Shown: positions 46,761 through 48,254 of the stretch, piece after piece
How the letters are laid out: each line of letters opens with the position of its first letter
Numbering within the stretch: the first letter of the stretch is position 1
Source of the DNA: a virus
Taxonomy: Duplodnaviria > Heunggongvirae > Uroviricota > Caudoviricetes
Direction: 5' to 3' (one strand)
Length of the DNA: 56,018 bases
Virus record (IMG/VR): IMGVR_UViG_3300042484_002423
Made by a program: the position numbers and the translations under genes
The notes under the pieces: generated by a model
What the model was told of the DNA's origin: nothing
Databases searched by the model: none
Seen by the model: the letters and a program-made list of their open reading frames with translations, nothing else

Positions 46761-46975
46761 TATTGTCCAATCAGGACATTGAAACATACGTGGACCAAAT
46801 GGAAAAAGACTCGACTGATTTTCGAGAACAGTGTTTGAAAATGTCATGGTACATGAGAGGCGGCGCAACGTATGAAGATGTGCTGCAAATGAGTCAGACT
46901 GAACGTCAGCTAGTATCCAACCTGATCAAAGACAACTTGGAAACCACAAACAAATCACGACTACCATTCTTCTAA
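46757..46975 (+). CDS. Small baseplate hub assembly protein (gp51-like position)
   Basis: 72 aa; MSWYMRGG.TYEDVLQMS.TER; coupled to the gp26-like gene. Confidence 0.55.
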   Translation: MILSNQDIETYVDQMEKDSTDFREQCLKMSWYMRGGATYEDVLQMSQTERQLVSNLIKDNLETTNKSRLPFF

Positions 46976-47478
46976 TGGAAATTGAAACTGTTAAACAACA
47001 CATTGAAAGCTGGATTGTAAACTTTGTAGAAGTACCGCATCCAGCCCTGGGCAATTGGCCACCATGCCCCTATGCTCGTAGTGCAAGACTGAAGAAAAGC
47101 TACGAAGTGTATTTGGGTACGGATCCCTTGTATGATCTCAAACATGTGGGTCGTCACGGGCTGCAAGGCAAAGAAGTCGTGATCTATGTTTATGATCCCG
47201 TTGAGTGGCCGCATGGTTTGTTCAGCAGCAGTTTGGAAGTTGCCAATCAGGAGTTCTTGTTGCCCCAGGATTTAATGGTGCTGGAAGATCATCCTGCAGA
47301 TGTAGAAATGGTCAACGGTGTGTGCATGAATCAAGGACAATATGCCTTGGCCCTGGTACAGAGTCTCAGTGACCTAAACCTCAAGGCTCAGCAAATTGCT
47401 GCCAAGGGATTTTATCATGGGTGGCCTGAACAGTATCTCGCAGGGCTGTTTCAACATCGCAAAGATCCAAGAACATGA
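46975..47478 (+). CDS. DUF1415-like protein
   Basis: WI.NFVE....GNWPPCPYA and EDHP motifs resemble the DUF1415 W..V.LNLCPFA / FHP motifs. Confidence 0.55.
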   Translation: MEIETVKQHIESWIVNFVEVPHPALGNWPPCPYARSARLKKSYEVYLGTDPLYDLKHVGRHGLQGKEVVIYVYDPVEWPHGLFSSSLEVANQEFLLPQDLMVLEDHPADVEMVNGVCMNQGQYALALVQSLSDLNLKAQQIAAKGFYHGWPEQYLAGLFQHRKDPRT

Positions 47479-47918
47479 GTTATCAATTTGCTAGAATTGA
47501 CTTGAGTAAAACCAATTATGTTTCTACGTTGGATTGGCGTTACATTGAAAGTCGTGAACCTGCTGTGCTAAGTCAGCTGGACGACATCTACAGGACCTAT
47601 TGTATCTACAAACATTTTGCATCAGTTATGCCCATGTTTCACAGTAGATATCATGATCCCATGGCCGACATCATTGGTTACTACGACAACAACCAACTGG
47701 TTGCCTGGAGCTTGATTCGTCGCTTTGACGAACACAATGCCTTGTGCGATCAATTTGCATGGACCTACCACAAACCAAAATCAAGAATTGGTATTGAAAC
47801 CATGAAAACAGAGTGCGCAATCTACAAACAACGTGGCTATCAATATTTGTATCTTGAACAAGCACACTTGTATAAACAAGAGATAGACGGGTTCGAACTA
47901 CTGGGCCCACTGGAGTAA
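47475..47918 (+). CDS. ATE_C/Bpt-like aminoacyl-transferase GNAT domain
   Basis: YYDNNQLVAWS, SRIG...KQRGYQYLYL, LYK parallel the ATE_C KLVAV, SLG...GL.YVYL, YK motifs. Confidence 0.55.
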   Translation: MSYQFARIDLSKTNYVSTLDWRYIESREPAVLSQLDDIYRTYCIYKHFASVMPMFHSRYHDPMADIIGYYDNNQLVAWSLIRRFDEHNALCDQFAWTYHKPKSRIGIETMKTECAIYKQRGYQYLYLEQAHLYKQEIDGFELLGPLE

Positions 47919-47921
47919 CAC

Positions 47922-48254
47922 ATGGACTTATACACAATCTGGGCTGACAAACAAGGCGACATTTCAGACCTTGACTGGGTCAACAACATGAAGAGCTTTT
48001 TTGATCACTTGGTATCAGAAGGCCGAATGGAGAGCTACAGAATCACACGCTGCAAGATGGGATTCAGAAGCATTGCAGACATGCCCGAATGGCTCATTAT
48101 TATGGAGTTTCGAGACATGGCTCAAATGGATTCAGCATTCAAGCGAGTTGCACCACTTGAAGGTGATCTTGAAGTCAAACACAAAAGTTTTAATCAATTT
48201 GTTTCAGGCAACATTCAACACGCACTCTGGCGTGACTGGCCAGATCAATTTTGA
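47922..48254 (+). CDS. DUF6614-like dimeric alpha/beta barrel protein
   Basis: EGRMESYRITRCKMGF...IMEFRDMAQMDSAF. Confidence 0.6.
   Translation: MDLYTIWADKQGDISDLDWVNNMKSFFDHLVSEGRMESYRITRCKMGFRSIADMPEWLIIMEFRDMAQMDSAFKRVAPLEGDLEVKHKSFNQFVSGNIQHALWRDWPDQF

Follow-up and report, generated by a model that had tools for sequence, protein, structure and literature searches.

A minimal ATE-type transferase domain paired with a putative haem-thiolate protein in giant T4-like phages from water

Introduction

Few aminoacyl-tRNA transferases act outside the ribosome; they comprise ATE1 and Bpt, the L/F-transferase, FemXAB, aaPGS, and some natural-product ligases. ATE1 and Bpt move arginine or leucine from aminoacyl-tRNA onto the N-terminal Asp or Glu of proteins. 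Here we describe a phage gene cassette with a relative of these two enzymes, located in a 56,018-nucleotide stretch of DNA (the window) from the IMG/VR virus record IMGVR_UViG_3300042484_002423, whose source is an uncultured giant T4-like water phage. Its core is a coupled gene pair on the + strand. ORF1 (46975–47478; 167 amino acids [aa]) encodes a putative thiolate-haem protein of the DUF1415/DUF6875 (cytochrome P422) superfamily, and ORF2 (47475–47918; 147 aa) encodes a stand-alone GNAT catalytic domain of the ATE/Bpt type (ATE_C-like), without ATE_N. The usual third gene is the small ORF3 (47922–48254, + strand; 110 aa), a facultative member of the DUF6614 family. A first-pass annotation of the window had placed these three genes here, tightly packed behind a baseplate gene on the + strand, and this arrangement was confirmed.

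A pairing of a transferase with a haem enzyme has been described in another setting. Together with ArgRS, tRNA, and arginine, AglC turns aminomethylphosphonate (AMPn) into the arginyl amide AMPn-Arg, and AglA, a thiolate-haem enzyme of the YqcI/YcgG type with a four-stranded sandwich and the ligand Cys44, N-hydroxylates the guanidine of AMPn-Arg (PMC12866846). The GNAT ligases of the argolaphos cluster are of the PF13480/COG3146 type (PMC8976061). DUF6875, for its part, has been described as a thiolate-ligated b-haem "cytochrome P422", an alpha/beta sandwich that hydroxylates tryptophan and in which the Cys of the motif RxGxVCP is the essential ligand (bioRxiv 10.64898/2025.12.11.692455).

The phage locus resembles each of these systems in part. 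With ATE1/Bpt (PF04376 + PF04377), ORF2 shares a homologous GNAT core, the Tyr-Lys pair, the tRNA-end Trp, and the arginine-binding Glu, but it is an acidic protein of only 147 aa without ATE_N, the acceptor pocket, or the Cys motifs and with no apparent basic tRNA-docking helix. It is also always paired with a separate DUF1415/P422-like protein, and its family comes nearly entirely from viral contigs. With AglC/AglA, the ORF1–ORF2 pair would share a tRNA-dependent, amide-forming GNAT, probably acting with arginine, beside a small Cys-ligated haem "sandwich" enzyme. ORF2 differs from AglC in being of the ATE_C type and half the size, and one ORF2 relative cross-matches PF13480 at 0.0016. The argolaphos system differs further in that ORF1 is of the DUF1415/DUF6875 type and lies in a phage operon, not an actinomycete cluster, with no phosphonate genes. 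When the Cys motif of the YqcI/YcgG members retrieved here (FPCVGAKSA; the family of AglA) was set against that of ORF1 (PPCPFARSA), the two were alike, but nothing beyond this motif lined up. ORF1 aligns with both cytochrome P422 (DUF6875) and DUF1415, its Cys-Pro falling on the haem-ligating Cys, but it is shorter (167 aa vs. 180–300 aa), stays below the Pfam gathering scores, and is without the motif Arg and the three Trp-binding motifs. FemX, aaPGS (MprF), and Sba18 have two GNAT lobes per chain, whereas ORF2 has one, and no significant sequence similarity links them to it.

Results

ORF2 is homologous to the catalytic domain of ATE1

An exhaustive phmmer search with ORF2 returned 108 representatives, including proteins of 225–260 aa that were matched over their C-terminal two-thirds. 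Of the 10 long relatives tested, nine had a PF04377 (ATE_C) match at E ≤ 0.01; six of these passed the 25-bit cut-off, and the best reached 1e-12. PF04376 (ATE_N) was matched neither by ORF2 nor by any of ten long-form relatives. A profile of 42 ORF2-family sequences (A1), compared with the PDB, matched ATE1 structures only, those of Kluyveromyces lactis (7wfx/7wg1, 8e-8) and Saccharomyces cerevisiae (8e3s/7tif, 3e-6); the next match had an E-value of 1.4. The N-terminal columns of the profile failed to align with ATE1 (score −2.7), and the GNAT core starts about 20 residues into ORF2.

The K. lactis enzyme (klAte1) allowed the conserved positions to be read against known roles. In klAte1, Y303 and K304 are essential and E277 binds the Arg side chain, a position at which the Leu-specific Bpt has Gln (PMC9351520). 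The chain numbering of 7wfx, which equals the numbering of that paper plus 4, was checked on W260, S273, E277, and Y289. On the resulting map, W260 corresponds to W96 of ORF2, S273 to T109, E277 to E113, Y303 to Y133, K304 to K134, S255 to C91, and Y289 to L125. Among the 42 family members, W96 was kept in 41, T109 (as Ser or Thr) in 34, E113 in 38, and Y133 and K134 in 39 each, while the remaining arginine-pocket positions are mixed in the family (a small residue, Ser/Thr, and Leu). Because E113 is conserved where the Leu-transferring Bpt has Gln, it argues for a basic donor amino acid, most simply arginine. At the level of sequence, these comparisons establish the homology of ORF2 with ATE_C, with the catalytic residues conserved, and they bear out the description of ORF2 as a half-size ATE/Bpt with the Tyr-Lys motif: profile A1 leads to ATE1, relatives match PF04377, Y133-K134 is kept, and ATE_N is absent.

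An AlphaFold2 model of ORF2 built with the alignment reached a pLDDT of 93.6 and a pTM of 0.87; the single-sequence fold reached a pLDDT of only 37. The top Foldseek ranks for the model were MprF/aaPGS, Sba18/Sbb17, and ATE1, all dependent on aminoacyl-tRNA, and the acetyltransferase VipF. By Foldseek and VIA, the GNAT lobe of ORF2 resembles aaPGS/MprF, FemX, Sba18, and ATE1.

ORF1 aligns with the DUF1415 and DUF6875 families

In the alignment of the ORF1 family (A2), the invariant residues were W13, C31 (in PPCP[F/Y]A), A34, A37, D105-H106-P107, E111, N119, G121, Q129, Y147, and W150, and an invariant EDHP motif was evident. ORF1 itself scored 16.5 bits in Pfam against a cut-off of 24.5, with no gathering score reached, and sub-threshold DUF6875 matches (residues 8–46) were found in six of the nine ORF1-family members. 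In the ESM-atlas, ORF1 and a homologue neighbour the DUF1415/DUF6875 clusters (0.92–0.94, with 210–223 shared features). For profile comparison by hhalign, 14 bacterial DUF1415 and two DUF6875 sequences were freshly collected. The ORF1 family aligned with DUF1415 over 125 columns (Prob 76%, E 2.3e-5) and with DUF6875 over 44 columns (Prob 90%, E 1.8e-6), and the two families aligned with each other (Prob 86%, E 4.9e-6). Controls with the unrelated profiles A1 and A3 gave less than 1%. In these alignments, the invariant Cys31-Pro32 of ORF1 falls on the V-C-P of DUF6875, which holds the haem-ligand Cys.

The comparisons thus place ORF1, by its sequence, in the DUF1415/DUF6875 superfamily with an aligned Cys, as a superfamily relative and not as a member of either family. 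The label "DUF1415-like" given to it in the first-pass annotation holds at that superfamily level (E 2.3e-5) and does not extend to Pfam, in which ORF1 lies below every gathering score. The same annotation had suggested that the partners of ORF2 supply its missing domain. This was not supported for ORF1: no similarity between ORF1 and ATE_N could be detected, and ORF1 is instead a putative haem-thiolate enzyme of the DUF1415/P422 type. The ORF1 profile gave nothing significant against the PDB. No fused form of ORF1 above 302 aa turned up when looked for, which is weak evidence. Among deposited phages, ORF1 was matched only at 24–25% identity, in Puniceispirillum phage HMO-2011 and Roseobacter phage CRP-345, neither of which has an ORF2 neighbour; the ORF1-like protein of CRP-345 (25% identical) matches DUF1415 at 5.7e-4.

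ORF1 accompanies ORF2 at every scorable locus, and ORF3 is optional

ORF1 lies upstream of ORF2 in all 87 scorable loci. Among them are five distant contexts, at identities of 31–47% to the window, and the two genes overlap in each, by 4 bp in four contexts and by 29 bp in locus L088. In L001 and L086/87 (44–47% identity), the 72-aa ORF that precedes ORF1 in the window is found upstream as well. In L088 (37/46% identity, with a DUF6614 gene at 71%), the cassette stands beside eIF-1A-like, superoxide dismutase, and B12-radical-SAM genes. In L002 (31/35% identity), it lies between the ribonucleotide reductase (RNR) small subunit and MazG/glutaredoxin genes, and in L089/90 (31/35% identity), it follows ThyX. 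The first-pass annotation had named as a weak point the possibility that the genes do not co-occur elsewhere; the ORF1–ORF2 pair was present in every locus examined.

ORF3 matches PF20319 over its full length (E 3.8e-22; 78.9 bits against a cut-off of 25), residues 1–109 falling on positions 1–107 of the 116-position profile, in agreement with its initial description as DUF6614-like. Among the 80 close loci, 68 carry it; of the other 12, four are cut by the end of the contig and eight are truly without it, so that it is missing from 8 of the 76 close loci with enough sequence. It is also missing from three of the four distant loci with sequence downstream of ORF2, the ORF3 of L088 (71% identity; PF20319 at 4.5e-27) being the exception. 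Because ORF3 is absent from several loci and the pair is present in all that could be scored, the unit is ORF1 plus ORF2, a conserved core pair to which ORF3 is facultative, and the trio once proposed as the functional unit gives way to this pair. Against the PDB, the best match of ORF3 was a coproheme decarboxylase at an E-value of only 0.2. The neighbours of bacterial DUF6614 genes, which include gyrA, glycosyltransferase, and phosphatase genes, were uninformative. DUF6614 as an anti-Druantia gene was considered and set aside: the sole paper concerns the 44-aa Druad1, with a loose DUF6614 assignment and no BLAST homologues, and gives no guide to ORF3.

Two further observations concern what follows the core pair. 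In L086 (1039–2157) and L087, which are 44% identical to the window, the cassette ends at ORF2, which overlaps a convergent radical SAM gene at the latter's 3′ end. A radical SAM link shared with the window was rejected, as no homology connects this gene of L086 with the radical SAM-SDR fusion of the window. In other loci, a recurrent accessory gene of about 340–355 aa (N-terminus MNxIVC...GxTFVDWSIHFL) comes after ORF2 or ORF3, as in L069 (3441–4490), L026 (2637–3656), and L041 (4908–5978).

Both genes of the pair are abundant. At E ≤ 0.01, a set of 5.8 billion proteins held 2654 clusters for ORF2 and 2377 for ORF1, nearly all 147 aa (ORF2) or about 167 aa (ORF1) long, and the named ones are called "hypothetical protein". 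The ORF2 family, which runs to thousands of sequence clusters from water metagenomes, was seen almost only on viral contigs; BFVD holds one member, labelled uncharacterised. Among the 50,697 deposited phage records, blastn of the region and tblastn of ORF2 and of ORF3 gave no match. In 80 related IMG/VR loci, identity to the window was 75–86% for ORF2, 80–92% for ORF3, 45–77% for ORF1, and 46–64% for the protein of the baseplate hub gene upstream. By this conservation, the cassette genes are evidently real, not chance ORFs, and under strong selection.

Amidinotransferase genes are inserted in the operons of relatives

A gene of 380–412 aa lies between ORF1 and ORF2 in 23 of the 87 loci, and a paralog of 323–376 aa lies between ORF2 and ORF3 in 10 of 69; three more loci have a 111-bp gap at the latter position. 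The inserted genes are on the same strand as the cassette, with stops and starts overlapping those of their neighbours. Their profile (A4) matched HsvA, AGAT, SxtG, and StrB1 at 2e-14 to 3e-12 (5wpi 2.4e-14, 1jdw 5e-13, 6u1r 2e-12, 1bwd 3e-12), and the catalytic H254, D256, and C390 (in GGIHC) are invariant. By sequence and catalytic residues, they are assigned as L-arginine amidinotransferases, with one or two per operon in about a quarter of the relatives. Since L-arginine amidinotransferases use arginine as the amidino donor, they give a second, independent pointer to arginine/guanidine chemistry.

Gene order around the cassette

In the window, the cassette closes a run of five + strand genes (45915–48254) with zero intergenic space. 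The run opens with a T4-type baseplate hub gene (45915–46760, + strand; PF12322 T4_baseplate at 2e-12, phrog_150 baseplate hub at 5e-16), followed by the 72-aa ORF (46757–46975, + strand), which overlaps the hub gene stop in TTGA and meets ORF1 in TAATG. ORF1 and ORF2 overlap in ATGA, and ORF2 and ORF3 are joined as TAA-cac-ATG. Because it is packed behind the hub gene without intergenic gaps, the cassette is probably co-expressed with it. The hub gene was found upstream in 67 of the 80 close loci, and the loci without a match all hold less than 1.5 kb upstream of ORF1. The 72-aa ORF is kept upstream of ORF1 in the close loci and in the distant L001, L086, and L087 (47–68% identity) and is absent from L002, L088, and L089; it probably belongs to the tail module, not to the cassette. 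CheckV-type estimates put the genome of this phage group at about 340 kb, and no tRNA genes were found in the window.

Upstream of the run, a 38-bp gap (45877–45914) separates the hub gene from a divergent 949-aa tail gene. It is a near-palindrome (CCTATAAG...ATTTATAGG). Its minus strand carries the T4-late-promoter-like TATAAATA, and its plus strand carries TATAAGTA. Because there is a late-promoter-like word on each strand, the gap may be a bidirectional late promoter.

Downstream of the cassette come a gene-free stretch, a Zn-ribbon gene, a segE-type GIY-YIG nuclease gene, a radical SAM-SDR fusion, and gp46/gp47-like genes (other strand). The cassette had been tentatively linked to a large RNA candidate on this side. 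Such a link is not supported, since the five distant contexts hold coding genes directly after ORF2 or ORF3, which leaves no room for an RNA. By blastn, which is insensitive for RNA, the stretch 48255–48720 of the window was found in only 4 of the 92 cassette loci.

Long-form relatives and Clp genes

The long viral ATE_C proteins (225–260 aa) also have a small neighbour: in most of 47 loci, their genes adjoin a gene for a 211–218-aa partner (family A3), which lies upstream on the same strand or convergent downstream (for example, L116:10001–11388 and L111–L155). Viral ATE-like transferases in general thus seem to come with a small partner. Family A3 matched nothing in the PDB or Pfam, and hhalign detected no likeness to ORF1 (1.4%). 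The highest-scoring stretch between the two families, which was not significant, aligned residues 105–125 of ORF1 (window 47287–47350) with residues 135–156 of the L116 partner, E-D-H-P...M-N-Q-G-x-Y-A against S-E-H-P...M-E-N-G-N-F-Y-A, a motif likeness that could be chance or a very distant relationship.

Genes of the Clp system were seen in several of the genomes and contigs. In the 340-kb cassette relative G001, they lie at L107:1195–3339, L104:88–2361, L100:1462–2052, and L102:1471–2046. Its ClpX carries a zinc finger. The better of its ClpP proteins shares 62–67% identity with ClpP from Burkholderiales, Neisseriaceae, and Alteromonas, a hint that the host may be a proteobacterium. A ClpS gene is present at L003:178–465, on a UvsW-bearing phage contig with a long-form ATE_C gene, and 12 of the long-form loci have a single-ring ClpA-D1-like AAA+ gene at a distance of about 2 kb. 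In the bacteria, a DUF1415 gene was found about 3.6 kb from clpP in two Alteromonas chromosomes (G025 and G023; L241/L242 with L178/L175) and not in Neisseria or Rubrivivax, and this proximity is probably genus-level synteny.

Discussion

The combination of an ATE/Bpt-type catalytic domain with ORF1 as its obligate neighbour is best read, as had first been proposed, as a tRNA-dependent aminoacylation system, probably one in which an Arg-tRNA-dependent aminoacyl transfer to an amine is coupled to a haem-dependent oxidation. We give this reading, whose logic resembles that of AglC/AglA, a probability of roughly 45%. ORF2 would take an amino acid from aminoacyl-tRNA, probably arginine from Arg-tRNA, and form an amide with an amine on the acceptor. 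ORF1, translationally coupled to ORF2, most likely binds haem through Cys31 and would probably oxidise (hydroxylate) the donor amino acid, the acceptor, or the product, with ORF3 as an optional accessory. The pairing of ORF1 and ORF2 is conserved throughout; we infer the tRNA as donor, arginine as the amino acid, the binding of haem, the order of the steps, and a non-protein acceptor. Protein tagging and a small metabolite were the two outcomes first suggested, and the amidinotransferases within the operons of relatives favour tagging no more than tailoring of arginine or of a small molecule.

Several findings weigh against this reading. On the side of ORF2, the sequence alone had no match in Pfam (E ≤ 1), NCBIfam, PHROGs, or the PDB; its closest sequence relatives, ATE1 and Bpt, modify proteins and not small molecules; and it is outside the AglC family (PF13480/COG3146). 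It has a pI of 6.05, and no counterpart of the basic tRNA-docking helix (klAte1 K112–K123) was seen in its 147 aa; because the protein is acidic and shows no such helix, its use of tRNA is something that we infer only. On the side of ORF1, the Arg of the RxGxVCP motif is absent (G-x-W-P-P-C-P stands instead), and the alignment with DUF6875 ends after its 44 columns. The Trp-binding motifs SBR1–3 of P422 (Rx(M/L)x3Dx2F, Dx2(Q/H)x3K, and MxGxF) were not found in ORF1, in which only MNQGxYA is loosely like MxGxF. As it is without the motif Arg and these Trp-binding motifs, ORF1 is read as a likely haem-thiolate enzyme and is not assigned as a Trp hydroxylase. When ORF1 was compared by hhalign with six members of YqcI/YcgG (PF08892, the family of AglA), no significant similarity emerged (Prob 0.8%, from small alignments). 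Lastly, the amidinotransferase genes are absent from the window and are therefore not essential to the core.

The main alternative, unlikely but serious, is that the cassette writes N-degrons: ORF2, with ORF1 replacing ATE_N or preparing the N-terminus (for example, by oxidation), would add arginine or another destabilising residue from aminoacyl-tRNA to the N-termini of host or phage proteins, which ClpS would then recognise and ClpAP degrade. It is given this much weight because the Clp set forms a coherent reader and eraser for an ATE/Bpt-like writer. ClpS (E ~1e-22) is encoded in all three near-complete cassette relatives of ~340 kb (G001, G002, and G021), and G001 also has ClpX, Hsp20, two ClpP, and a 757-aa unfoldase of the ClpA type, built of Clp_N and two AAA rings; an Aat L/F-transferase was looked for in G001 and none was found. 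The only characterised relatives of ORF2 are N-terminal protein transferases, a long-form ATE_C gene lies 3.5 kb from the ClpS gene in L003, and R7, kept in 38 of the 42 family members, could match the acceptor-binding Arg80 of ATE1. However, ATE_N, with its acceptor pocket (R80, Y25), is absent, also from the long forms as far as could be detected, and the Clp genes of G001 are more than 100 kb from the cassette, an association that is genome-wide and comes from one lineage of gene-rich giant phages. No ClpS was found in the ten other long-form viral records searched, including one rated 100% complete (59 kb) and one rated 84% complete. The operon partners, a P422-like haem protein and amidinotransferases, are also of the small-molecule type.

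A more specific version of tagging would be gated by oxidation. In eukaryotes, oxidation of an N-terminal Cys precedes arginylation. By analogy, ORF1 would oxidise an N-terminal residue, ORF2 would arginylate it from Arg-tRNA, and the ClpS-ClpA-ClpP of the phage would destroy the tagged host or phage proteins. We regard this as rather improbable.

It is somewhat more doubtful still that the amino acid goes to a phage macromolecule, though not to a protein N-terminus (for example, to a hypermodified DNA base with an amine, a virion glycan, or a polyamine), and that the cassette decorates the virion or its DNA. The probable expression of the cassette with the baseplate hub gene, behind which it is packed, would fit, as would the distant pairs that lie among genes of nucleotide metabolism (RNR small subunit, MazG, and glutaredoxin in L002; ThyX in L089). 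HsvA, one of the structure matches of the inserted amidinotransferases, acts on polyamines. A cultured T4-like cyanophage, moreover, has an amidinotransferase in its virion proteome (PMC12801897). This support is purely contextual, however, and such neighbourhoods are typical of T4-like accessory regions; no DNA-modification enzyme (a kinase or a glycosylase-like transferase) is linked to the cassette, and the radical SAM genes adjacent to it in the window and in L086, being non-homologous, offer no common thread.

ORF2 could also be an ordinary acyl-CoA-dependent GNAT N-acyltransferase (acetyl or longer) that shares only its fold with ATE, a plain acetyltransferase being a possibility that the first-pass annotation had raised. 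We find this very improbable. The profile singled out ATE1 (8e-8) from all other PDB entries, and hardly any family member deviates at the Tyr-Lys pair and the Trp, which are essential in ATE1. The CoA pyrophosphate motif (acyl-CoA motif A, Q/R-x-x-G-x-G/A) is not present in ORF2, which reads S103-R-I-G106-I-E108; across its relatives, Leu predominates at position 103, G106 never changes, and position 108 varies, with E, R, or K in 15 of the 26 short forms and Ala in only 2 of the 16 long forms. Least probable of all is that no function links the genes and that only shared descent in a single phage lineage has kept them side by side, as the ORF1-like proteins without ORF2 in HMO-2011 and CRP-345 and the lack of an ORF2-like neighbour within 1.5 kb of bacterial DUF1415, DUF6875, and DUF6614 genes might suggest, because the pair persists at 31–47% identity in five contexts with overlapping coding regions in each, and the inserts are same-strand, coupled, arginine-related enzymes and not random morons.

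As judged from its sequences, the cassette is an abundant phage module that joins a minimal ATE-type transferase to a putative haem enzyme of the DUF1415/P422 type, and no member of it has been characterised. In this viral family, only the catalytic lobe of the transferase appears to be left, coupled to a putative haem-thiolate enzyme. ORF1 would give DUF1415, which has no known function, its first testable functional hypothesis. If proteins are tagged, giant phages would run an N-degron system of their own, and an oxidation-gated form of it would be the first pathway of the Arg/N-degron type in a virus of bacteria. If instead the product is an arginine-derived metabolite or a decoration, the cassette would represent a new phage auxiliary pathway that draws on the host pool of charged tRNA.

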